A stretch of 64,000 bases of DNA. It comes from an uncultured Eubacteriales bacterium. Its GTDB lineage: Bacteria; Bacillota; Clostridia; Oscillospirales; Oscillospiraceae. The notes beneath the pieces are model-generated. The model was not told the DNA's origin and ran no database searches. It saw nothing but the letters and a program-made list of their open reading frames with translations. The first letter of the stretch is position 1, and each line of letters opens with the position of its first letter. The position numbers were made by a program, and so were the translations under genes. Shown one piece after another: positions 6,765-59,121 of this stretch. The stretch spans positions 44,064 through 108,063 of the forward strand of contig CABMQL010000001.1 in NCBI GenBank assembly GCA_902388735.1. The letters run 5' to 3'.

Positions 6765-7040
6765 ATTCCAACAAACGATGAAGGAGAGCAGTACTCCCGC
6801 GCGGGATGCCAAGAGAGGAAGCGGCCGGTGTGAGCTTCCGTGACGGCGGGGAGGAAGTCGCTCCGGAGTTCTGCCGCCCAGCGAGAGCAAGCGGCAGCGG
6901 CCGGCCGCCGTTATCGGTTTTTGAGTGCGGAGGGTTCCCCCCTCCGAACACAGGTGGTACCACGGACTGTATTTATGGTTCGCCCTGTTTTGCTTTTGCG
7001 GCAAGACGGAGCGGACCTTTTGTTTTGCCGAATTTCGGAA
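6765..7040 (+). promoter_or_regulatory. T-box riboswitch leader upstream of valS
   Basis: Long GC-rich untranslated leader. Contains the T-box core caGGTGGTACCacgg at ~6953-6965, followed by hairpin/U-rich elements before the valS SD. Standard context for a tRNA synthetase in Firmicutes. Confidence 0.65.
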
Positions 7041-7054
7041 AAGGAGAGTTCACC

Positions 7055-9688
7055 ATGAGAAAAGAATTACCCAAGGTCTACGACCCCCGGGATGTGGAGC
7101 CCCGGATCTATCAGATGTGGATGGACGGCGGCTGCTTCAAGGCGGAGCCTAACCCGGACAAGAAGCCGTTTTCCATCGTTATGCCGCCCCCCAACGTCAC
7201 CGGCCAGCTGCACATGGGTCACGCCATGGACTCCACCCTGCAGGACATCCTCACCCGTTTCAAGCGGATGCAGGGGTATGAGGCCCTGTGGCTGCCCGGC
7301 ACCGACCACGCCGGCATCGCTACTCAGATCAAGGTGGAGGAGAACCTGCGCAAGGAGGAGGGCCTCACCCGCCACGACCTGGGCCGGGAGAAGTTCCTGG
7401 AGCGCGTGTGGGACTGGAAGGAGAAATACGGCAACCGCATCGTGCAGCAGCAGATGAAGATGGGCGCTTCCTGCGACTGGGACCGCAGCCGCTTCACCAT
7501 GGACGAGGGCTGCTCCAAGGCCGTGCGGGAGACCTTCTGCGAGCTGTATGACAAGGGCCTGATCTATAAGGGCAGCCGCATCATCAACTGGTGCCCCCAC
7601 TGCCTGACAGCCCTGTCCGACGCCGAGGTGGAGTACGCCGATAAGCCCGGTCACCTTTGGTATGTGCGTTATCCCCTTACCGACGGCAGCGGAGACATCG
7701 TAATTGCCACCACCCGGCCCGAGACTATGATGGGCGATACGGGCGTGGCTGTGAACCCGGAGGACGAGAAGTTCAAGCATCTCATCGGCAAGACCTGCAT
7801 CCTGCCCATTATGAACCGGGAGATCCCCATTGTGGGCGACGAATACTGCGAGATCGGCTTCGGCACCGGCGCCGTGAAGATGACTCCCGCCCATGATCCC
7901 AACGACTTCGAGGTGGGCCTGCGCCACAACCTGGAGGTCATCCGCGTTATCGCCGACGACGGCACTATCAACGAAAACGGCGGCCCCTACAACGGCATGG
8001 ACCGTTACGAGTGCCGCAAGGCCATTGTGAAGGACCTGGAGGAGCAGGGTTATCTCATTAAGTCCGAGCCCTACTCCCACAACGTGGGCACCTGCTACCG
8101 CTGCCACAACGATGTGGAGCCCTTGATCTCCGCCCAGTGGTTCGTGAAGATGGCGCCCCTGGCCAAGGAGGCCATCCGCGTGGTGGAGGACGGCACCATC
8201 AAGTTCGTGCCCGAGCGCTTTACCAAGACCTATATCAACTGGATGGAAAACGTCCATGACTGGTGCATTTCCCGCCAGCTTTGGTGGGGCCATCAGATCC
8301 CTGCCTGGTACTGCGATGACTGCGGTCACATCAATGTGAGCCGCCAGGATCCCACCAAGTGCGAGAAGTGCGGCAGCACCCACCTGACCCGGGACGAGGA
8401 CGTGCTGGACACCTGGTTCTCCTCGGCTCTGTGGCCGTTTTCCACCCTGGGCTGGCCCGATACGGAGTCGGCCGACCTGAAGTATTGGTACCCCACCTCC
8501 GTCATGGTCACCGGTTACGACATCATCTTCTTCTGGGTGGCCCGGATGATCTTCTCCGGCATGGAGCAGATGAAGAAGGAGCCCTTCAAGACCGTGTTCA
8601 TTCATGGCCTGGTCCGGGACGACAAAGGCCGCAAGATGTCCAAGTCTTTGGGCAACGGCATCGATCCCCTGGAGATGGCGGAGCAGTACGGCGCCGACGC
8701 CCTGCGCTTCAACCTCATCACCGGCAACAGCCCCGGCAACGATATGCGCTTCTATGTGGAAAAATGCGAGGCCATGCGGAACTTTGCCAATAAGATCTGG
8801 AACGCCTCCCGCTTTGTGATGATGAACCTGACCATCGACAAGGTGGAGCTGCCCGAGAAGCTGGAGCTGGAGGACAAGTGGATCCTCAGCAAGCTCAACA
8901 CCCTCATCCGGGAGGTCACGGACAATATGGACGCCTTTGAGCTGGGCGTGGCCTCTGCTAAGATCTATGACTTCATTTGGGACACCTATTGTGACTGGTA
9001 TATCGAGCTGACCAAGACCCGCCTCAACGGCGAGGATGAGGGCGCCAAGCTGGCGGCGGAGAATGTGCTGTGCTATGTGCTGCTGCGCATTCTGGAACTG
9101 CTGCATCCCTTCATGCCGTTCATTACGGAGGAGATCTGGCAGGCCCTGCCTCATGAGGGCGATTACCTGATCCGCGCCAAGTGGCCCGAGTACCATCCGG
9201 AGTTTGACTTCCGGGCGGAGGAGCAGGCCATGGAGGCGGTGAAGGACGCCATTTCCGCCGTCCGTGCCCGCCGGGCCGAGATGAACGTGCCGCCGAGCAA
9301 AAAGGCACAGATGATTATTGTCACAGACCATGCGGAAGACTATCGCCTGGGCGAGCACTTCATCAAGCGCATGGCTTATGCCAGCGAGCTCACCGTAACG
9401 GACGCGGCTCCCGCGGATCTTACGGGCCTGGTCACCGTGGTGACCCATGGCGCCAACGTTTATCTGCCCCTGGCGGAGCTGGTGGACTTTGAGAAGGAGC
9501 TGGAGCGCATCGCCAAGGAGCGGGCAAAGGCCGCTGAGAACCTGGCGCGCATTGAGCAGAAGCTCAGCAACGAGAAGTTCGTCTCCAAGGCACCCGAAGC
9601 GGTGGTGAACGCCGAGCGGGAAAAGGCGGAGAAAGCCCGGGCCCTCATTGCCAAGCTGGATGAATCCGCCGCTGCCATGAGAGGCTGA
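7055..9688 (+). CDS. valS: Valine--tRNA ligase
   Basis: 877 aa. HIGH (HMGH) and KMSKS motifs. Start [13 protein letters not shown] preceded by AAAAGGAGAG; the tool ORF's 5' extension is leader sequence. Confidence 0.95.
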
Positions 9689-11123: not shown

Positions 11124-11827
11124 GTGACAGCAGACTGGCCCTGCTGGATCGGGCACAGTCGGGGGACAGCGATGCCTGCGAAAAAATGCTGATGGAAAAC
11201 AGCGGGCTGATCTGGGCCGTAGTGCGGCGATACTACGGCTGCGGGGCAGACCCGGAGGACCTGTATCAGCTGGGATGCATAGGATTCATAAAAGCTGTAA
11301 AGGGATTTGACATTACATATGGAACGCAGTTTTCCACCTATGCGGTGCCAAAGATCGCGGGAGAAATTCGGCGATTTTTACGGGATGACGGACCGGTGAA
11401 GGTAGGGCGCACACTGCGGGAGAGAGGGCAAAGTATCTGGTCGGCCCGACAGCGGCTGCGCACCGCCTTAGGGCGGGAACCGAGGTTATCAGAGGTCGCC
11501 GCCGAGACCGGATGGAGCGCCGAGGAGATCGCCGCGGCGGAACTGGCCGTCTCCGCTCCGGAATCGCTGCAGCAGGAGACGGCGGAGGGGCTGACGCTGG
11601 AATCTACCCTGGGCACGGACGCGCCGGAGGAGTCCCTGGTTGAAAAAATCGCGCTCCGGGAGGCCATACGGGCCCTTCCGGAGCGGGAACAGGAAACGAT
11701 TTATCTTCGGTTCTTCAAATGCATGACTCAGGAGCAGGCGGCGCGGATCCTGGGAGTGTCTCAGGTGCAGGTATCCCGTCTGGAGCGGAAGGGAGTGGCA
11801 CATCTGCGGGAGATGCTTCGGGAATAA
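11120..11827 (+). CDS. sigF: Sporulation sigma factor SigF
   Basis: 235-aa sigma-70 family protein. Third gene of the spoIIA operon. Confidence 0.92.
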   Translation: MSDSRLALLDRAQSGDSDACEKMLMENSGLIWAVVRRYYGCGADPEDLYQLGCIGFIKAVKGFDITYGTQFSTYAVPKIAGEIRRFLRDDGPVKVGRTLRERGQSIWSARQRLRTALGREPRLSEVAAETGWSAEEIAAAELAVSAPESLQQETAEGLTLESTLGTDAPEESLVEKIALREAIRALPEREQETIYLRFFKCMTQEQAARILGVSQVQVSRLERKGVAHLREMLRE

Positions 11828-12590
11828 AGGCGCTTTCCGACTGGAACTCCGTCATGGTAGCGCGATAGCGCTTGGGCAAAAATGTGTTTTGGCAGCGCGG
11901 GTTATACCGATCTTCAATGGCAACGGTGTCAAAAAATGTTTTCCACAGCTTGCGGTATTGCGCCTCCTGTTCGTCCGGCGGCGCAAGGGTCAGGGAATCG
12001 GCCTGCACAATGTGGGACCGGCCCCCGCTGTATAAAAGCAGCTCCCCATGCGTGCGGTCATACAGGAAAAAGGATTCGTTGGCGTAGCGGCTGCAAAAGT
12101 AACCCCTCAGAAAGGGGAGCACCCGGTTTTTGGGCTCAATCTCAGCGCCTAATATGCCGCCGAAGTCGGAGAAGCGCACAAAGCCCCGGAGCTTTTCCAG
12201 CTCGCCGGATAAATGGCGGACGGCCTTATATAGCGGGAAGCAGGCCTCACCAGAGGTGCGGTGCAAAAACTGCGGGCCATCGGCATAGAGCTTTTGGACA
12301 AAACGGTACAGACAGGCTTCCTTGTCGGCCATGCAGGTGTGAAAGGCCCGGTAAAGCAGGCGCCCCGCCCGGGCAGAGCGGCTTTCGATGCTGCGCAGGA
12401 TACGTTCGCTGTGCGTGAGGTCTGTTTCCACACAGCGGACGGGATAAAGAGTGAGAACGGGAAATTCCTCATTGCCGGCAAAGGCAATGGGGAATTCTTT
12501 ATTTACATAACTCTCATAAATGCAGCAGAGAAATCCTTCGTAGCTGCCGTCATATTCATAAACCATGTCGATCCAGGACACTGCGTTCAC
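11715..12590 (-). CDS. Probable DNA metabolism protein, TIGR03915/DUF4130 type (partner of the radical-SAM DNA repair protein)
   Basis: 291 aa. The start overlaps the stop of the upstream radical-SAM gene. The C-terminal ~37 aa are Pro-rich, low-complexity, and encoded antisense to the 3' end of sigF. Confidence 0.7.
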   Translation of the reverse strand: MNAVSWIDMVYEYDGSYEGFLCCIYESYVNKEFPIAFAGNEEFPVLTLYPVRCVETDLTHSERILRSIESRSARAGRLLYRAFHTCMADKEACLYRFVQKLYADGPQFLHRTSGEACFPLYKAVRHLSGELEKLRGFVRFSDFGGILGAEIEPKNRVLPFLRGYFCSRYANESFFLYDRTHGELLLYSGGRSHIVQADSLTLAPPDEQEAQYRKLWKTFFDTVAIEDRYNPRCQNTFLPKRYRATMTEFQSESAFIPEASPADVPLPSAPDGIPAPETLPGSAPPAPESCI

Positions 12591-13855
12591 CCCGTTGCGT
12601 CAAAGAGAGATAGCTGCTGGGCGGCCGGAACAGGCAGACTGCCGCGTTCCACAGCCTGCAGCTGAAAGGCCAGGCTATCGGCGGTAAAATGAAGTCCCTC
12701 CCGCATGCGTCCGCCGCACAGGATAAAAAATTGTGCCCGCTTGAGAACGATACCCATCTTCTTCAGGTCGTCAAAATGGAGAGGACCCGTTCGCCGGGCG
12801 GAAAGTATGCGCCGGGCGCCGGTGGGGCCGATGCCGGGGACACGCAGAAGCCGGTCTAAGCCGGCGGTCATGATCTCCACGGGAAACTGCTCCGGGTGGG
12901 TGATGGCCCAATAGCACTTCGGATCCAGCATGGGATCGAAATTCGGGTGCTGGTCATCCAGCAATTCCTCGGCCCGGAAACCATAAGACCGCAGGAGCCA
13001 ATCCGCCTGGTACAGCCGATGTTCCCGCAGAAGCGGCGGCTTGGTATGCAGTGCAGGGAGGAGGGGGTTTTCCACAACGGGCACATATGCGGAATAAAAG
13101 ACCCGTTTGAGCCGATAGCGGGCATACAGTGATTCGGTCAGATGCAGAATGTGCCGGTCACTATCCTCCGTGGCGCCCACAATGAGCTGCGTGCTCTGCC
13201 CGGCCGGGGCAAAGGCGGGGGCGTGGCGGTACTTCACCAGTTCCTCTTTATTCTGCCGGCCCTGGGCCTCAATGAGCCGCATGGGCGCAAGAATGGCGGC
13301 CTTGCTCTTGTCCGGGGCCAGGGAGGCCAGTCCCTTTTGGGACGGCAGCTCAATATTCACGCTGAGACGGTCCGCCAAATAGCCCAGCCGCTGCACCAGC
13401 TCAGGGCTTGTGCCGGGAATGGCCTTGGCGTGGATATAGCCGTTGAAGCCGTATTCCTGCCGCAGCAGCCGCAGCGACTCGATCATGCGCAGGGTGGTAT
13501 AGTCCGGGTCGCGCAGAACACCGCTGGAGAGAAAAAGTCCCTCAATATAGTTGCGGCGATAGAACTGAATGGTCAGATCGGCCAGCTCCCGGGGAGTAAA
13601 CGCGGTGCGGCGGGTATCGTTGCTGCGGCGGTTGACACAGTATTTGCAGTCGTACACACAGTAATTGGTCATGAGCACCTTCAGCAGGGAGATGCAGCGT
13701 CCGTCAGCGGAAAAGCTGTGACAACAGCCGGCAATGGAGGAGGATGTATTTCCGATCATCCCGGGACGAGAACCGCGCTTGACGCCGCTGGATGTACAGG
13801 AAGCGTCATATTTGGCGGCATCCGTGAGGATGGTCAGCTTATCCAGCAGGTCCAT
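12587..13855 (-). CDS. Putative DNA modification/repair radical SAM protein (TIGR03916 type, C-terminal HhH domain)
   Basis: 422 aa. CxxxCxxC-type cluster region (CVYDCKYC) and C-terminal helix-hairpin-helix (PGIGPTGARRIL). Conserved pairing with a DUF4130 gene. Confidence 0.85.
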   Translation of the reverse strand: MDLLDKLTILTDAAKYDASCTSSGVKRGSRPGMIGNTSSSIAGCCHSFSADGRCISLLKVLMTNYCVYDCKYCVNRRSNDTRRTAFTPRELADLTIQFYRRNYIEGLFLSSGVLRDPDYTTLRMIESLRLLRQEYGFNGYIHAKAIPGTSPELVQRLGYLADRLSVNIELPSQKGLASLAPDKSKAAILAPMRLIEAQGRQNKEELVKYRHAPAFAPAGQSTQLIVGATEDSDRHILHLTESLYARYRLKRVFYSAYVPVVENPLLPALHTKPPLLREHRLYQADWLLRSYGFRAEELLDDQHPNFDPMLDPKCYWAITHPEQFPVEIMTAGLDRLLRVPGIGPTGARRILSARRTGPLHFDDLKKMGIVLKRAQFFILCGGRMREGLHFTADSLAFQLQAVERGSLPVPAAQQLSLFDATG

Positions 13856-13856
13856 T

Positions 13857-13970
13857 TCAGGCGGCGCTGCGCCGGCTGCGGGGCTGATCCACCCGCTCGA
13901 TCAGGCGCATGAGCTGGCCGGAAAAAGCGGCTACACCGATGATTGTGATGATCCATCCGAAAGTCGTCAT
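13857..13970 (-). CDS. Candidate 37-aa small ORF (MTTFGWIITIIGVAAFSGQLMRLIERVDQPRSRRSAA) translationally coupled to the radical-SAM gene
   Basis: Found by hand; below the tool's 60-aa cutoff. SD GGAGGAA 6 nt before the ATG. The stop/start junction is TGAaATG. It is the first cistron after a consensus promoter. Confidence 0.45.
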   Translation of the reverse strand: MTTFGWIITIIGVAAFSGQLMRLIERVDQPRSRRSAA

Positions 13971-13987
13971 GGTGAGTTCCTCCAAAT

Positions 13988-14001
13988 AAAACTTTTGTTC
14001 T
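13988..14001. promoter_or_regulatory. Second, slightly degenerate LexA-like box (AAAAC-tttt-GTTC-T) at the predicted transcription start of the minus-strand operon
   Basis: One mismatch to GAAC-N4-GTTC. Confidence 0.4.
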
Positions 14002-14008
14002 ACTAAGG

Positions 14009-14037
14009 ATTATAAATCGAACAAGAGTTCTTGTCAA
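14009..14037 (-). promoter_or_regulatory. Perfect consensus sigma-A promoter (TTGACA-17-TATAAT) driving the minus-strand smallORF–radical-SAM–DUF4130 operon
   Basis: Reverse complement of 14032-14037 is TTGACA and of 14009-14014 is TATAAT, with exactly 17 nt between them. Confidence 0.7.
14018..14031. promoter_or_regulatory. LexA (Cheo/SOS) box CGAACAAGAGTTCT lying entirely inside the promoter spacer
   Basis: Exact fit to the Firmicute consensus CGAAC-N4-GTTC-T. Confidence 0.7.
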
Positions 14038-14045
14038 GAGGAAAT

Positions 14046-14059
14046 CGAACAAAAATTCT
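14046..14059. promoter_or_regulatory. Third LexA-like box (CGAAC-aaaa-ATTC-T), upstream of both divergent promoters
   Basis: One mismatch to consensus. Confidence 0.4.
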
Positions 14060-14077
14060 AATTTTTTATTTAGGCGG

Positions 14078-14106
14078 TTGACCGGAGGGGAGAATTGATA
14101 TAAAAT
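14078..14106 (+). promoter_or_regulatory. pcrA sigma-A promoter (TTGACC-17-TAAAAT)
   Basis: Hexamers read directly; ~30 nt upstream of the pcrA start. Confidence 0.55.
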
Positions 14107-14135: not shown

Positions 14136-16589
14136 ATGAACGAATTAGAAAGACGATTTATAGCCGCCCGGCGCAAGGCCATTGAGCTGGACTACAAGCG
14201 GCTCAATCCCATGCAGCGGGAGGGCGTGCTGACCACTGAGGGGCCGCTGCTGCTGCTGGCGGGTGCGGGCTCCGGCAAGACCACGGTGCTCATTAACCGG
14301 GTGGCAAACCTGCTGCGCTATGGCCGGGGCAGCGACACGGAGGAGATCCCCATTCCTATCTCCGAGGACGAGGTGGCGTTTCTGGAGCAGTATATCCAGG
14401 ACCCCCAGGAGGAGATGCGGCCCGTGATGCAGTATCTGTGTGCCGTGCAGCCGGCCCGGCCATGGGAGGTGCTGGCCATTACCTTCACCAACAAGGCCGC
14501 CGGGGAGCTGAAGGAGCGCCTGGAGCGGATGCTGGGGGAGGAGGCCCTGGATGTGTGGGCAGCCACTTTCCACGCGGCCTGCGTTCGCATTCTGCGCCGG
14601 GATATTGACAAACTGGGCTATGACCGCAATTTTACCATCTATGACACCGACGACTCCAAGCGAGTCATCAAGGATATTCTCAAGGACCTGGGTTTGGAGG
14701 AAAAGCAGTTTCCCACTCGAGAGCTGCTGTCGGTGATCTCCAACGCCAAGGGGGACATGCTCTCCCCGGAGGAGTTCTGCCAGCTGTGGGAGCAGCGGGG
14801 AGATTGGCGGAAAATCAGGATCGGTAAAGTATATAGGCTTTACAACCAAAAGCTCCGGGAGGCCAACGCCCTGGACTTTGACGACATCATCCTGCATACG
14901 GTGACCCTGCTGCAGAGCGACAAAGAGGTGCGCGCGTACTATCAGAATAAGTTCCGCTACATACTCATTGATGAGTACCAGGACACCAACCACCTGCAGT
15001 TCCTCCTGGCGGGTCTGCTGACGGGCCCTCACGGCAACATCTGCGTGGTGGGCGATGACGACCAAAGCATTTACCGCTTCCGGGGCGCGGATATCACCAA
15101 TATCCTCAGCTTTGAGCAGCGCTATAAGAACGCACGGACCATCCGTTTGGAGCAGAATTACCGGTCTACCCAAAACATCCTGGACGCGGCCAACGCGGTG
15201 ATCCGCAACAATGAGGGGCGCAAGGGCAAGACTCTGTGGACCCAAAACGGCGCCGGGGACCCGGTGACCATCAAGACCTGCTTCAACGAGAGCGACGAGG
15301 CCAACTTTGTGGTGGGAGACATCATGACCCGCTACAACCGGGGCGCCAACTGGCGGGACAACGCCATTCTGTACCGGATGAACGCCCAGTCCAACGCCTT
15401 GGAATATGCCTTCAAGCGCAACGGCGTGCCCTATAAGATCGTGGGCGGTGTGAAGTTCTTCGACCGGGCAGAGGTGAAGGATATGCTGGCATATCTGTGT
15501 GTGATCTGCAACCCGGCGGACGACCTGCGCCTGCGACGGATCATCAATGTGCCCTCCCGGAAGATCGGCGGGGCGTCCCTGGAAAAGGCCCAGGCTATTG
15601 CGGCGGCGGAGGGGAAGCCTCTGTTTGAGATCGTCCGCACCGCCCGGAATTACCCGGAGCTGAAGTCCGCCGCCGGGCGGATGGAGGATTTCGGGCAGCT
15701 GATTATGGAGCTGCGGGCGCTGTGCGACCAGCTGGAGCTGGTGGAATTTTACGGCAGGGTCTGCCAGATGTCCGGCTATGTGCAGATGCTGCAGGAAAAG
15801 AATGACATGGAGAGTCGGGGCCGGCTGGAGAACGTGCAGGAGTTGGCCTCCAGCATCAGCGCTTTCCTGGAAAACGACCCCGATGACCCGTCCCTGGCGG
15901 GCTTTCTCAACGATGTGGCCCTGTATACCGACTTGGACGGCCAGTCCGACAGCGACAACTGCGTGACCCTGATGACCATGCACAGCGCCAAGGGCCTGGA
16001 ATTTGACCATGTGTATGTCACCGGCATGGACGAGGGCGTGTTCCCCGGGAACCGCGCTATGGGCGAGCAGGAGGAAATGGAGGAGGAGCGCAGGCTCTGC
16101 TATGTGGCCATGACCCGGGCCCGCAAGACCCTGACCATGACCAACGTGCGCCAGCGGATGCTTTTTGGCCAAACGGAGCCGAAGATGCCCTCCCGATTCC
16201 TGGAGGAGATCCCGGCGGAGAATATGCGCTGGCTCGGAAAGCCCGAGCCGAGAAAGGCGCTCCAGTGGGACGATGACTGGAGCGATGGCTGGTCCGGCGG
16301 CTGGGGGAGCACCACGCGCGGAACATATAAAGCACAGGAGATCAAGCAGCAGACAAGGCAAAAACCTTTACAGCATTCCACAACGACCCGCCGGGTGCCG
16401 GCGGCTGCTTCCGCGCCGCTGATGCAGCTAAGCGCCGGGGATCAGGTGCGCCACAGCGCCTTTGGACAGGGTATGGTGCTCAGCGTGCGGCCTATGGGCG
16501 GCGATGCGCTGATTGAGGTGGCCTTTGACAAAGTGGGCACCAAGAAGCTGATGCTCAAGGCCGCCGGGGCACATCTGACCAAATTGTAA
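14136..16589 (+). CDS. pcrA: ATP-dependent DNA helicase PcrA (UvrD family)
   Basis: 817 aa. Walker A GAGSGKT, UvrD-type helicase motifs, C-terminal Tudor-like tail. SD GAGAGAGG. Confidence 0.92.
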   Translation: MNELERRFIAARRKAIELDYKRLNPMQREGVLTTEGPLLLLAGAGSGKTTVLINRVANLLRYGRGSDTEEIPIPISEDEVAFLEQYIQDPQEEMRPVMQYLCAVQPARPWEVLAITFTNKAAGELKERLERMLGEEALDVWAATFHAACVRILRRDIDKLGYDRNFTIYDTDDSKRVIKDILKDLGLEEKQFPTRELLSVISNAKGDMLSPEEFCQLWEQRGDWRKIRIGKVYRLYNQKLREANALDFDDIILHTVTLLQSDKEVRAYYQNKFRYILIDEYQDTNHLQFLLAGLLTGPHGNICVVGDDDQSIYRFRGADITNILSFEQRYKNARTIRLEQNYRSTQNILDAANAVIRNNEGRKGKTLWTQNGAGDPVTIKTCFNESDEANFVVGDIMTRYNRGANWRDNAILYRMNAQSNALEYAFKRNGVPYKIVGGVKFFDRAEVKDMLAYLCVICNPADDLRLRRIINVPSRKIGGASLEKAQAIAAAEGKPLFEIVRTARNYPELKSAAGRMEDFGQLIMELRALCDQLELVEFYGRVCQMSGYVQMLQEKNDMESRGRLENVQELASSISAFLENDPDDPSLAGFLNDVALYTDLDGQSDSDNCVTLMTMHSAKGLEFDHVYVTGMDEGVFPGNRAMGEQEEMEEERRLCYVAMTRARKTLTMTNVRQRMLFGQTEPKMPSRFLEEIPAENMRWLGKPEPRKALQWDDDWSDGWSGGWGSTTRGTYKAQEIKQQTRQKPLQHSTTTRRVPAAASAPLMQLSAGDQVRHSAFGQGMVLSVRPMGGDALIEVAFDKVGTKKLMLKAAGAHLTKL

Positions 16590-50603: not shown

Positions 50604-50609
50604 TAGAAA

Positions 50610-51265
50610 TTACTGAATGACGGTGCAGTATCCTAGTCAGATCTGCCGTCTTGTAAGAGGGGCCTAAAAATCCCTTAAAGGGCACAACTGTGAAGCCTCT
50701 GGTGCCTGCTTCTTACGCCCAGTTTGGGGTGGGTGCTGGAGGGAGGCGCGGCCAAATACCGCGCCTGCAAAAGTAGGGCGCCTTCCAATGGCATGGAAGA
50801 CCCGACCCTGCTTTTGTGGAGACCTGCTCTTGTGCACAGGCGTACTCCCCTGGTGGTAAGCGACCTGTGTACGAAGCAGATTGAGAACCTGCAATGCGGT
50901 GCTACACGGCCCTCCGGCCGCGAACGCTGTGTGCAGAGTAGCCTGCCTTGCGTGGAGTGGGTGGATGAGGGAGCCAAGCGGAAGCATCCCCGGCCAGGGA
51001 TGCTCTCCGATATTCCTCTGAAACCCCCTCTGCAAAAGAGGCTAAGAGACGGTTTGACTGCAGTGGAAATCACCTAGGCTGTCCCACAAAGGGCGTCGAT
51101 GAGGTTGCAGTGCGGACTAAGTGGCAGTCGGGTCCTGCGGTAGGTAACGCCGCAGCTCGGGTTTTAATGGGAAACCGCCTGATCGGCAACGAGAGGTAAC
51201 CCGCGGGGAAATCCAACCCGTACCTAAGCCGTAAGATTTATCATCGGGGCTGCCGTCATTCAGTT
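50610..51265 (+). ncRNA. ole: Large (~650 nt) structured non-coding RNA; locus context matches OLE (ornate, large, extremophilic) RNA
   Basis: 790-nt gap between ispA and the next credible gene with no SD-led ORF. The 5' end CUGAAUGACGGUGCAG pairs with the 3' end CUGCCGUCAUUCAG, followed by a U-tract. Many internal GC hairpins. Own promoter. Flanked by ispA upstream and an OapA-like 4-TM protein then dxs downstream, which is the canonical OLE locus. The OLE consensus itself could not be checked here. Confidence 0.6.
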
Positions 51266-51295
51266 TTTATTTTTATATAAGCGAGGGAATCGGAT

Positions 51296-55860: not shown

Positions 55861-57534
55861 ATGCTGGATCTGCTGCATATTGAAAATATTGCCATCATCG
55901 AGCAGGCGGACATTTCGTTCCGCCCGGGCTTTAACGTGCTGACGGGCGAGACCGGCGCGGGCAAATCCATTGTGATCGACGCGCTGAGCGCCGTCTTGGG
56001 CCAGCGCGCATCCCGTGAGCTGATCCGGACCGGTGCGGACCACGCCTTTGTCAGCGCTGTTTTTTCCGGGATCCCTCAGGGCCTTGGCCAGGACCTGGGC
56101 ATTGCCGATGCGGAGGAATGGCTCCTGCAGCGTGAGATATACGCCGATGGCAAAAACGTCTGCCGCCTGAACGGCCGCCCTATGACCGTAACGCAGCTGC
56201 GTACCCTGGGAAACCGACTGCTGAATATCCATGGCCAGCACGACGGCCAGCAGCTTTTGGATGAGACGCAGCACATCCTTTACCTGGATCAGTACGGAAG
56301 GTATACGCCTTTACAGTCCGCCTATCAGGAGAAATATTCCGCCCTGCAGAAGATTGAAAGCCAAATTTCTGCCCTGCAGATGGACGAGTCGGAAAAAGCC
56401 CGGCGGATCGACACCCTGCAGTTTCAGATCCAGGACCTGGATCGGGCCAACCTGCAAAGCGGCGAGGAGGAGGAGCTCCTGGAACGGAGAAACCTGCTGC
56501 GCAACAGCGAAAAATTCATCTCCGCCATCCAGGGAGCGGACTATTGCCTCAATGGGGACGACCAGCGGGAGGGCGCTCTGTCCCTGCTTCGCCAGGCACA
56601 GGAGCAGCTGACCTCTGTTCGGGGCCTCAGCGATAGCTTTGCCCAGCTGACCGAGCGGCTGGACGCCGTATACAGCGAGGTGTATGACATCGCCTATACG
56701 GTGCAGGATAAAAAGGACGAGTTCGATTTTGCCCCAGGCGAGCTGGACGCGGTGGAGGGCCGCTGCGACCAGCTCTACCGATTGAAGAAAAAATACGGCG
56801 CAACTGTGGAGGACATGCTGGCGTATCTGGAAAAATGCAGGCAGGAGCTGGATCAGATCGCATTTGCGGATGACACACTGGCACAGCTGCAAAAGCGCCG
56901 GGAAAAGGCGCTGCAGGAAGCCTTGGCCGCCGCCCGGGAGCTGTCTCAGCAGCGTAAGGCCGCCGCCCGGTCGCTTGAAAAGCAGATCCTGACGGAGCTG
57001 CGGGAACTGAACATGGGCTCCATCCGGTTCGAGGTGGCCTTTGCGGAGAAGACGCCGGATGCCAGCGGCATTGACGAGGTTCGTTTTTTGATGTCCGCCA
57101 ACGTGGGTGAGGAGCTTCGCCCCATTCAGAAGATCGCCTCCGGCGGCGAGCTGGCCCGGATCATGCTGGCTATGAAGAACGTGTTTTCCCAGCAGGAGAA
57201 GATCGGCACCATGGTCTTTGACGAGGTGGATACCGGCGTGTCCGGCCGCGCGGCGCAAAAGGTGGCGGAGAAGATGGCCAAGATCTCTCGCCAGAAGCAG
57301 GTGCTGTGCGTGACCCATCTTCCGCAGCTGGCGGCCATGGCGGATACGCATTTTTCCGTAGAAAAGGGCGTTTCCGGCGGCCGGACCTTTACCCGGGTGC
57401 AGGAGCTGACCCGGCAGCAGCGCCGGGAGGAGCTGGCCCGGCTCACCGGCGGCGGCCAGGTCTCGCAGACCATGCTGGACAGCGCCGAAGAGCTTCTGTC
57501 GGCGGCTGATGCTTTTAAAAAAACATTGGCTTAG
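55861..57534 (+). CDS. recN: DNA repair protein RecN
   Basis: 557-aa SMC-like protein. Walker A GETGAGKS, C-terminal signature/Walker B. Confidence 0.93.
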   Translation: MLDLLHIENIAIIEQADISFRPGFNVLTGETGAGKSIVIDALSAVLGQRASRELIRTGADHAFVSAVFSGIPQGLGQDLGIADAEEWLLQREIYADGKNVCRLNGRPMTVTQLRTLGNRLLNIHGQHDGQQLLDETQHILYLDQYGRYTPLQSAYQEKYSALQKIESQISALQMDESEKARRIDTLQFQIQDLDRANLQSGEEEELLERRNLLRNSEKFISAIQGADYCLNGDDQREGALSLLRQAQEQLTSVRGLSDSFAQLTERLDAVYSEVYDIAYTVQDKKDEFDFAPGELDAVEGRCDQLYRLKKKYGATVEDMLAYLEKCRQELDQIAFADDTLAQLQKRREKALQEALAAARELSQQRKAAARSLEKQILTELRELNMGSIRFEVAFAEKTPDASGIDEVRFLMSANVGEELRPIQKIASGGELARIMLAMKNVFSQQEKIGTMVFDEVDTGVSGRAAQKVAEKMAKISRQKQVLCVTHLPQLAAMADTHFSVEKGVSGGRTFTRVQELTRQQRREELARLTGGGQVSQTMLDSAEELLSAADAFKKTLA

Positions 57535-57538
57535 GCTG

Positions 57539-57567
57539 TTGACAAAGAACGAATCGTTCACTATAAT
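57539..57567 (+). promoter_or_regulatory. Perfect consensus sigma-A promoter (TTGACA-17-TATAAT) for the tyrS leader
   Basis: Read directly. Confidence 0.7.
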
Positions 57568-57574
57568 ATTTCAT

Positions 57575-57885
57575 AAGTTCATATTCTTACAGCGATGATG
57601 GGAAAAAGTAACACCGATTCTGCCTGCCAAGAGAGCCTCCGTTGGGTGCAAGGAGGAGAGGGGAGCGGCTGTGAATACATTCCGGAGCTGCCTTCCGAAC
57701 GGGTGTGTGCCTCAGTAGGGATGCGTCGGGCGCGCCCGTTACAGCGCAGGAGTGCAGCGCACTCCGTGAGGCCGCAGACCGTGAGGCTGCGGCGAATATG
57801 AGGTGGTACCGTGACATATGTCGCCCTCTGTCCAAAGAGACAGGGGGCGATTTTTTCTCCTGTCTGATCTGCATCAAAAGAAAGG
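57575..57885 (+). promoter_or_regulatory. T-box riboswitch leader of tyrS
   Basis: T-box core AAUAUGAGGUGGUACCGUG (~57795-57813). UAC-containing specifier candidate (GAAUACAUU). Terminator gtcgccctctgtc-caaa-gagacagggggcga followed by TTTTTTc immediately before the tyrS SD. Confidence 0.8.
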
Positions 57886-57894
57886 AACGAAAAA

Positions 57895-59121
57895 ATGGGA
57901 ATTTATGAAGAACTGATCACCCGCGGGCTGATCGCACAGGTGACCAACGAGGACGAGATCCGTGAGATGGTCAACAACGGCAAGGCAACCTTCTACATCG
58001 GCTTTGACTGTACGGCGGACTCCCTGCATGTAGGTCACTTTATGGCTCTGTGCCTGATGAAGCGCCTGCAGATGGCCGGCAATAAGCCTATCGCCCTTAT
58101 CGGCGACGGCACTACCATGATCGGCGACCCCTCCGGCCGGACGGATATGCGCAAAATGCTCACCCGCGAGGACATCGTGCACAATGCCGAGTGCTTCAAG
58201 CGCCAGATGGAGAAATTCATCGACTTCTCTGACGGGAAAGCGCTGATGCTCTATAATTCCGAGTGGCTGATGCCGCTGAATTATATTGAGCTGCTGCGGG
58301 AGGTAGGCGCCTGCTTCTCCGTGAACAATATGCTGCGGGCCGAGTGCTATAAGCAGCGCATGGAAAAGGGCTTGAGCTTCCTGGAGTTCAACTACATGAT
58401 CATGCAGAGCTATGACTTCTACTACATGTTCCAGCACTACGGCTGCAATATGCAGTTTGGCGGCAACGACCAGTGGAGCAACATGCTGGGCGGCACGGAG
58501 CTGATCCGCCGCAAGCTGGGTAAGGATGCCCACGCCATGACCATCAACCTGCTGCTGAATTCCGAGGGCAAGAAGATGGGCAAGACCGCCTCCGGCGCCG
58601 TGTGGCTGGATCCCAATAAGACCAGCCCCTTCGAGTTCTATCAGTACTGGCGCAATGTGGATGACGCGGATGTGATCAAGTGCCTGCGGATGCTGACCTT
58701 CCTCCCGCTGGAGGAGATCGACGCCATGGCCGACTGGAAGGATGCCAAGCTCAACGAGGCCAAGGATATTTTGGCCTATGAGCTGACGAAGCTGGTCCAT
58801 AGCGAGGATGAGGCCAATAAGGCCCGGGAGGCATCCCGTGCGCTGTTCTCCGGCAAGGGGGATACCACCCATATGCCCGCCACCGAGATCGCGGCCGACA
58901 AGCTGACAGACGGCAAGATCGGCGTCATGGCGCTGCTGGTGGAGTGCGGCCTGTGCGCATCCAACAGTGAGGCCCGGCGGCTGGTGCAGCAGGGCGGCGT
59001 CAGCGTGAACGACGCGAAGGTGGAGTCCATTGACGCCGCCTTTGACGCGGACAGCCTGGCCGGCGAGGGTGTCATCATCAAGAAGGGCAAGAAGATCTTC
59101 CACAGGGCATTTATGAAGTAA
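57895..59121 (+). CDS. tyrS: Tyrosine--tRNA ligase
   Basis: 408 aa. HIGH (HVGH) and KMGKT motifs, C-terminal S4 domain. Confidence 0.95.
   Translation: MGIYEELITRGLIAQVTNEDEIREMVNNGKATFYIGFDCTADSLHVGHFMALCLMKRLQMAGNKPIALIGDGTTMIGDPSGRTDMRKMLTREDIVHNAECFKRQMEKFIDFSDGKALMLYNSEWLMPLNYIELLREVGACFSVNNMLRAECYKQRMEKGLSFLEFNYMIMQSYDFYYMFQHYGCNMQFGGNDQWSNMLGGTELIRRKLGKDAHAMTINLLLNSEGKKMGKTASGAVWLDPNKTSPFEFYQYWRNVDDADVIKCLRMLTFLPLEEIDAMADWKDAKLNEAKDILAYELTKLVHSEDEANKAREASRALFSGKGDTTHMPATEIAADKLTDGKIGVMALLVECGLCASNSEARRLVQQGGVSVNDAKVESIDAAFDADSLAGEGVIIKKGKKIFHRAFMK

Follow-up and report, generated by a model that had tools for sequence, protein, structure and literature searches.

The promoter of a radical-SAM operon in this genome is most probably an SOS promoter that is repressed by LexA through three operators, a reading to which we assign a probability of about 0.88. 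The window, by which we mean the whole stretch of 64,000 nucleotides that was analysed, carries this operon on its minus strand. It consists of a small ORF, a radical-SAM gene and a DUF4130 gene, and is divergent from the helicase gene pcrA. A sequence-only reading of the same DNA had proposed a LexA-repressed SOS promoter for these three genes, and the comparative evidence supports this proposal. We infer that LexA is the binding protein, that it occupies all three sites and represses the operon, that DNA damage induces it, and which roles the products play.

Read on the minus strand from 14065 to 13985, the intergenic region is TAGAATTTTTGTTCGATTTCCTCTTGACAAGAACTCTTGTTCGATTTATAATCCTTAGTAGAACAAAAGTTTTATTTGGAGG, after which comes the ATG at 13970. 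The -35 hexamer TTGACA (14037..14032) and the -10 hexamer TATAAT (14014..14009) are spaced by 17 nt, and the resulting TTGACA-17-TATAAT (14037..14009, minus strand) scored 12/12 in the promoter scan, exact to the base as the sequence-only reading had it. Hexamer geometry alone places the predicted +1 at ~14002. The spacer is filled by candidate operator O1 (14031..14018, minus strand), a perfect Cheo box AGAACTCTTGTTCG with the structure AGAAC-TCTT-GTTCG (plus strand CGAACAAGAGTTCT). O1 begins directly after the -35 hexamer, stops 3 nt short of the -10 hexamer, and is centred at ~-22.5. Candidate operator O2 (14001..13988, minus strand) reads AGAACAAAAGTTTT, i.e., AGAAC-AAAA-GTTTT, with one mismatch that gives it a GTTT arm. 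Its first base coincides with the predicted +1, and it spans ~+1 to +14 with its centre at ~+8. Candidate operator O3 (14059..14046, minus strand), AGAATTTTTGTTCG, has GAAT for GAAC as its single mismatch and thus an NTTC arm. Its edge lies 8 nt upstream of the -35 hexamer, and its centre is at ~-50.5 of the operon promoter and at ~-60.5 of the pcrA promoter.

Hence, the three boxes overlap or adjoin the core promoter in the spacer, at +1..+14 and at -50, with centre-to-centre distances of 28 bp and 30 bp, and all three have a form of the Firmicute LexA operator GAAC-N4-GTTC. O1 and O3 together constitute an 18-nt direct repeat, 28 bp apart. All three had been placed at these positions before. 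The two outer boxes, which had been called half-degenerate, match forms used to search for Clostridial LexA sites: among the motifs of that search are GAACnnnnGTTT, which corresponds to O2, and GAACnnnnnTTC, which corresponds to O3 (PMC4234289). Downstream of the boxes, the Shine-Dalgarno sequence GGAGG of the small ORF (13979..13983, minus strand) is conserved in the ortholog promoter alignment. No Rfam family reached its gathering threshold in the intergenic region.

Besides the operon promoter, the window has a second one that scores 12/12. This promoter, TTGACA-AAGAACGAATCGTTCAC-TATAAT, is located at 57539-57567 (+) and drives a T-box leader (57586-57831; Rfam 101.7 bits) and tyrS (57895-59121). 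Its spacer contains the 6-1-6 palindrome GAACGA-a-TCGTTC, which is GAAC-N5-GTTC and does not have the N4 spacing of a Cheo box; this palindrome may be coincidental, or it may serve some regulator as an operator. A further T-box leader at 6769-6990 (+; 108.6 bits) precedes valS (~7055-9688). The window also contains a full-length OLE (Ornate Large Extremophilic) RNA (50604-51272, +; 425 bits), flanked by ispA and by a CNNM-domain gene, after which comes dxs. This is a known RNA family, found here in a human-gut member of the Oscillospiraceae.

Could the boxes simply be a chance resemblance within AT-rich intergenic DNA? Counts over the whole window would permit it. GAAC-N4-GTTC was seen once against 0.55 expected, so that a single perfect box is not significant, and 14-mers with at most one mismatch were not enriched; eight such sites were present, three of which fall inside 71 bp at the operon promoter. 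The relevant tests are, in place of window-wide counts, shuffles of the local composition and the promoters of orthologs. When the 165-bp intergenic region (34% GC) was shuffled 20,000 times with its dinucleotides preserved, the probability of a perfect box was 0.0018 and that of two or more boxes 0.0011, while three or more boxes were never obtained (0/20,000).

The ortholog set contained one genome per species and comprised 80 loci with 50-99% protein identity, 71 of which belong to the Clostridia. A box with at most one mismatch was present in the 250 bp upstream of the radical-SAM gene in 67 of these 71 loci (shuffle mean 5.8, maximum 13) and a perfect box in 31 (shuffle mean 0.18), counts that overstate the number of independent observations because the loci are phylogenetically related. 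Expressed as densities, boxes with at most one mismatch amounted to 8.1/kb upstream versus 0.28/kb in the remaining 562 kb, and perfect boxes to 1.8/kb versus 0.011/kb elsewhere, an enrichment of 29- to 170-fold. The best-scoring promoters of the 71 loci were near-consensus, usually starting with TTGACA. In 67/71 loci a box centre fell within -40..+20 of this promoter, and in 45/71 within its spacer. The exact position varied by lineage (in the spacer, over the -35 hexamer or at +1). The regulatory link to the operon thus persists while the individual sites turn over.

An alignment of 27 promoters (66-99% identity) revealed a footprint. TTGACA was invariant (27/27) and TATAAT nearly so, and the GAAC and GTTC arms were conserved, while the N4 cores varied (TCTT, ATCC, GCCT, AGTT, GTTT, TGCT, CACT, GAGT and others). 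For O1, conservation was 80-100% in the arms compared to 30-60% at the core positions. Conserved arms around free cores are the signature of a protein-binding palindrome. The half-site TTTGTTCGA of O3 was nearly invariant across 31 distinct orthologous promoters, and the GAACAA half of O2 was conserved while its opposite half alternated between GTTT and ATTC. Both O2 and O3 had one mismatch in every close relative and were never perfect, and most of the distant lineages had one or two boxes. The closest genome was that of an uncultured 'Oscillibacter sp.' MAG (99% identity), and a 99% identical locus is present in CAMBKF010000001.1. An exact copy of the radical-SAM protein was found in 17 contigs from human-gut metagenomes, all with the same gene order. 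The shuffles, the enrichment upstream of orthologs and the footprint refute the chance explanation, and its remaining probability is close to nil.

Which protein reads these boxes is indicated by a comparison between lineages. From 48 distinct sites outside the clade of the window we obtained the motif GAACATATGTTC, with the symmetrised consensus aaaGAACATATGTTCttt, whose ATAT centre we take to be that of the refined Gram-positive LexA consensus. The GAAC-N4-GTTC core published for Gram-positive LexA is contained in this consensus (PMC4234289). Six orthologs from Jannaschia (Alphaproteobacteria) all had GTTC-N7-GTTC at -26/-27 (6/6), and none had a Cheo box (0/6). This direct repeat has a background of only 0.019/kb and was present in 3/71 Firmicute loci; it is the alphaproteobacterial LexA motif. 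The upstream motif thus differs between the two phyla as LexA would predict, which is the strongest available argument for LexA as the regulator.

A non-LexA regulator, for example another HTH or S24-family repressor, might nevertheless read the GAAC-N4-GTTC palindromes. Consistent with such a possibility, no lexA gene was found in the 64-kb window (tblastn with B. subtilis LexA, best E=1.6), and the same search across all ortholog loci matched only an XRE-HTH/S24 gene in locus L061. That gene sits directly upstream of the radical-SAM gene, and so illustrates that the operon can come under a different repressor that responds to damage. Yet, both the consensus from independent lineages and the alphaproteobacterial repeat match LexA, and we know of no other Firmicute regulator with a GAAC-N4-GTTC motif, which makes a different regulator very improbable. 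A further question is which gene the boxes serve. They might chiefly control the divergent pcrA (14136..16589, +; 817 aa), or both genes as a shared bidirectional operator region. PcrA is a LexA target in B. subtilis, and pcrA is the adjacent divergent neighbour in 30/71 loci. Furthermore, LexA control of PcrA or UvrD has been documented in other species (PMC4951493), and one subclade has an extra perfect box within pcrA codons 5-8. As had been noted earlier, pcrA has a promoter of its own some 40 nt further on: the promoter scan found a promoter-like site TTGACC-17-TAAAAT (14078..14106, +), which lies 41 nt beyond the -35 hexamer of the operon, serves here as context outside the operator set, and has a -35 (GGTCAA on the minus strand) that is conserved in the ortholog alignment. 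However, the core promoter of pcrA in the window is free of Cheo boxes, the nearest being O3 with its centre at ~-60, whereas O1 and O2 are located exactly on the operon promoter. Moreover, boxes were kept in 37 of the 41 loci that lack an adjacent, divergent pcrA, and locus L034 retained all three boxes and the small ORF although pcrA is not adjacent. This persistence indicates that the operators serve the radical-SAM operon, and on this comparative evidence the boxes belong to the operon and not to pcrA; control directed mainly at pcrA appears improbable.

If the boxes are indeed LexA operators of the operon, a plausible sequence of events can be outlined. In an undamaged cell, LexA dimers would sit on O1 in the spacer, on O2 from +1 to +14, and on O3 at ~-50, where an UP element or the alpha C-terminal domain of RNA polymerase would touch the DNA. 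The spacing of 28 and 30 bp between centres would let the three dimers lie side by side and cover ~-63 to +20. The sigma-A promoter, otherwise perfect, would thereby be closed to RNA polymerase, with both binding and initiation blocked. Upon DNA damage, RecA-stimulated self-cleavage of LexA would free a promoter of maximal strength, and the operon would be strongly transcribed. This would yield a 37-aa membrane peptide, the TIGR03916 radical-SAM/HhH protein and its DUF4130 partner, the latter two as a putative DNA repair or modification complex. The spacing of 28/30 bp counts against this model, as it is a non-integral number of helical turns. Occupancy of O2 and O3 may also be weak or dependent on cooperativity, given their consistent mismatch in relatives. 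An alternative explanation might therefore be that O1 alone is the working LexA operator, with O3 as an A/T-rich UP-like element or the relic of a 28-bp duplication, and O2 as part of a leader conserved for other reasons. UP elements sit at about -40 to -63, which is the position of O3, and the direct repeat shared with O1 fits an origin by duplication. The lack of any perfect O2 or O3 among close relatives and the sufficiency of one or two boxes in most distant lineages point in the same direction. Conversely, the conserved part of O2 and O3 is precisely a LexA half-site plus three of the four bases of the other arm, and the degenerate arm of O2 swaps between GTTT and ATTC in such a way that the form of a box is kept both ways. 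Both degenerate forms were among the motifs used to search for LexA sites in Clostridia (PMC4234289), and in DNA of the local composition chance never produced three boxes. Overall, we regard a single working operator as fairly unlikely, and prefer the model with three.

The window itself contains no further canonical SOS gene with a box. The recN gene (55861-57534, +), which follows argR, has no Cheo box upstream, and the near-matches at 57009 and 57177 lie inside its coding sequence. Since recN is an SOS gene in many bacteria, and no other boxed SOS gene occurs in the window, the window does not corroborate a working LexA regulon.

Several observations on neighbouring genes in related species deserve mention. 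In locus L061 (Oscillospiraceae MAG Gx485_bin151), a gene with XRE-HTH and S24-peptidase domains (CI/LexA-like; ~1770-2330) ends ~30 nt upstream of the radical-SAM gene and stands in place of the Cheo boxes, which suggests that in that lineage the same operon has a dedicated repressor of its own, one that is cleavable upon damage. In 8 of the 30 loci with an adjacent pcrA (L016-L019, L021, L025, L037 and L070), codons 5-8 of pcrA, which encode E-Q-R/K-F, are written as GAACAAAGGTTC or GAACAAAAGTTC and thereby create a perfect fourth Cheo box. The same peptide written with other codons does not. The window has GAAAGACGATTT at ~14148-14159 and no box. In the species that have it, the pcrA-internal box may let LexA act as a roadblock on pcrA. 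The main model alignments of PcrA in the window (TIGR01073, PF00580) start at about residue 100, which corresponds to profile position ~40. This suggests that its N-terminal region has an insertion of ~60 residues relative to canonical PcrA/UvrD. With 830.8 bits, the whole protein falls short of the equivalog cutoff (911).

The gene identities in the sequence-only reading were all right, PcrA included. The radical-SAM protein (12587..13855, minus strand) matched TIGR03916 with 631 bits against a cutoff of 343.5. It has the CX3CX2C cluster motif as CVYDCKYC at residues 66-73, a Radical_SAM match and weak helix-hairpin-helix (HhH) matches; the profile search returned no SPASM match. The adjacent, co-oriented gene (11715..12590, minus strand), whose start overlaps or follows the radical-SAM stop, encodes a 291-aa protein that matched TIGR03915 (186.5 bits versus 112.25) and DUF4130 (140 bits). 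[quoted passage not shown] A UDG fusion occurs in only a fraction of TIGR03915 members and is not obligatory. Hence, the score, the cluster motif and the adjacent partner agree with the TIGR03916/TIGR03915 putative DNA-repair pair, while the fusion is lacking. The earlier description of the products as lacking a defined function is correct in that they are experimentally uncharacterised, although existing annotation does class the pair as putative DNA repair. It has been proposed to be a base-excision or DNA-modification system linked to the SOS response (PMC4951493, PMC3765255), and a 2026 preprint predicted a radical-SAM-DUF4130 complex with AlphaFold 3 (10.64898/2026.08.19.745780).

The 3' end of the DUF4130 gene (minus strand) overlaps by 113 nt (11715-11827 of the window) with the convergent 3' end of a sigF-like gene (plus strand), which belongs to a spoIIAA-spoIIAB-sigF operon. 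Of 31 related loci, 24 share the exact length of 113 nt, four have an overlap of 80-128 nt, and four have none. The part of the DUF4130 protein encoded there belongs to its low-complexity Pro/Ala tail, the C-terminal 42 aa. Past the DUF4130 stop, the minus strand showed no terminator-like site. With the overlap and without such a terminator, SOS-induced transcription would run antisense into sigF, and it is possible that DNA damage is linked to sporulation in this way.

The first gene of the operon is a small ORF of 37 aa, MTTFGWIITIIGVAAFSGQLMRLIERVDQPRSRRSAA (13857..13970, minus strand), that is conserved in 32 loci of one Oscillospiraceae clade and absent from 39/71 Clostridia orthologs. 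The loci without it include L041 and L051, from Pseudoflavonifractor isolates, which do carry the radical-SAM/DUF4130 pair. Its stop lies 1 nt before the radical-SAM ATG in the window and 1-10 nt before it across loci, and the GGAGG upstream is conserved. The peptides share the consensus MTT.G..I.I.GA.......M.L.D....P...RRR.AA, and codon-position differences (3314/1908/5077) were most frequent at the third and least frequent at the second position. By these indications the 37-aa ORF is real, and its arrangement tells that it is translationally coupled to the radical-SAM gene. The peptide begins with a hydrophobic stretch of 20 residues and ends in a basic, Arg-rich tail. AlphaFold2 gave one continuous helix over residues 2-35, with a pLDDT of ~90 over the first 20 residues, so the product is predicted to be a single-helix membrane peptide. 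The family comprises 321 protein clusters of ~37-43 aa, all named 'hypothetical protein', and had no match to a Pfam or NCBIfam model; a divergent member occurs in the same context (pcrA<>small ORF-rSAM-DUF4130><sigF). Loci with the small ORF had on average 2.75 boxes compared to 1.44 in loci without it (Mann-Whitney p=2e-9), a contrast of roughly one clade versus the rest that is not phylogenetically independent. No convincing alternative small ORFs were found in the lineages with long leaders.

Two functions for this peptide were considered and rejected. A RiPP precursor for the adjacent radical-SAM protein is at odds with the absence of Cys from the window peptide and of any conserved Cys in the family, with the lack of SPASM and with the fact that the peptide is not obligatory. 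An attenuator or leader peptide does not agree with a distance of 1 nt to the radical-SAM ATG without a terminator in between, nor with a conserved peptide sequence. A tentative third idea is that the peptide is a new Oscillospiraceae-specific SOS effector, either the protein that halts cell division after DNA damage in these Clostridia or a membrane-active peptide resembling TisB, and that the three-operator lock co-evolved to silence a harmful product. This idea is speculative and has perhaps a modest chance of being correct. TisB is an SOS-induced small membrane protein that, like SidA, has 29 aa, close in size to the 37-aa peptide. Similarly, the SOS division inhibitors YneA, SosA and SidA are small membrane proteins under a LexA-type promoter (PMC6051672, PMC6851548, PMC4211646, PMC13396833). 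However, the peptide has no sequence similarity to YneA, SosA, SidA or TisB and lacks a LysM or extracellular domain. Furthermore, the neighbours of the small ORF are pcrA and the radical-SAM gene, not lexA, and in contrast to the YneA/SosA/SidA type it is coupled to a repair-enzyme gene. If the idea were true, a strong derepressed promoter reading antisense into the 3' end of sigF might tie DNA damage to an arrest of sporulation.

Neither the principle of this regulation nor a link between LexA and this operon is new. In E. coli, the three SOS boxes of recN and the tandem boxes of colicin promoters give very low basal expression and strong late induction. Promoter P1 of phage GIL01 likewise combines several LexA boxes on one strong promoter, but an accessory factor of the gp7 type is not implied here (PMC4551915). 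LexA motifs, spacings and cargo genes differ between these multi-operator promoters and ours. In C. acetobutylicum, LexA control of CAC3343-CAC3344 was predicted by Wang et al. in 2013 from footprinting and expression clustering (PMC3828012). That case is alike in belonging to the class Clostridia, in its operator type and in its basis in phylogenetic footprinting; it was described with a LexA site, whereas here we find three operators, a perfect promoter and an additional first small ORF. From comparative genomics, LexA regulation of the TIGR03916-TIGR03915 operon was also reported in Verrucomicrobia (PMC4951493), and another paper reports LexA control in Bacteroidetes, and in Caulobacter with reference to da Rocha 2008 (PMC8565304). 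These are the same two-gene module under LexA, read as SOS-linked DNA base repair. Their LexA motifs are different, and none of them is described with a small ORF. In addition, the TIGR03915 homologs of Verrucomicrobia all have a UDG domain (PMC4951493), in contrast to the window protein. Operators of SOS genes in B. subtilis, C. perfringens and C. difficile consist of the same palindrome overlapping the promoter (PMC4234289), but here a box exactly fills the spacer of a 12/12 promoter and has a neighbour on either side at distances of 28 and 30 bp, apparently a very tight arrangement. A study of the SOS meta-regulon in gut Firmicutes did not include the radical-SAM/DUF4130 pair among its 12 prototypical COGs (PMC3998124). 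What our comparison adds is the breadth of the link across Clostridia and the difference in motif between phyla, and a conserved, clade-specific three-operator layout with an unannotated, coupled small ORF.

Our results point to a firm place for the radical-SAM/DUF4130 pair, itself uncharacterised, in the SOS regulon of Clostridia at large, and this extends to Oscillospiraceae that are abundant in the human gut but uncultured. The difference in motif between Clostridia and Alphaproteobacteria, as LexA predicts, makes it more credible that the pair works on damaged DNA. The locus offers a clean, predicted inducible promoter for studying this pair, and flags the 37-aa membrane peptide as a candidate SOS effector.
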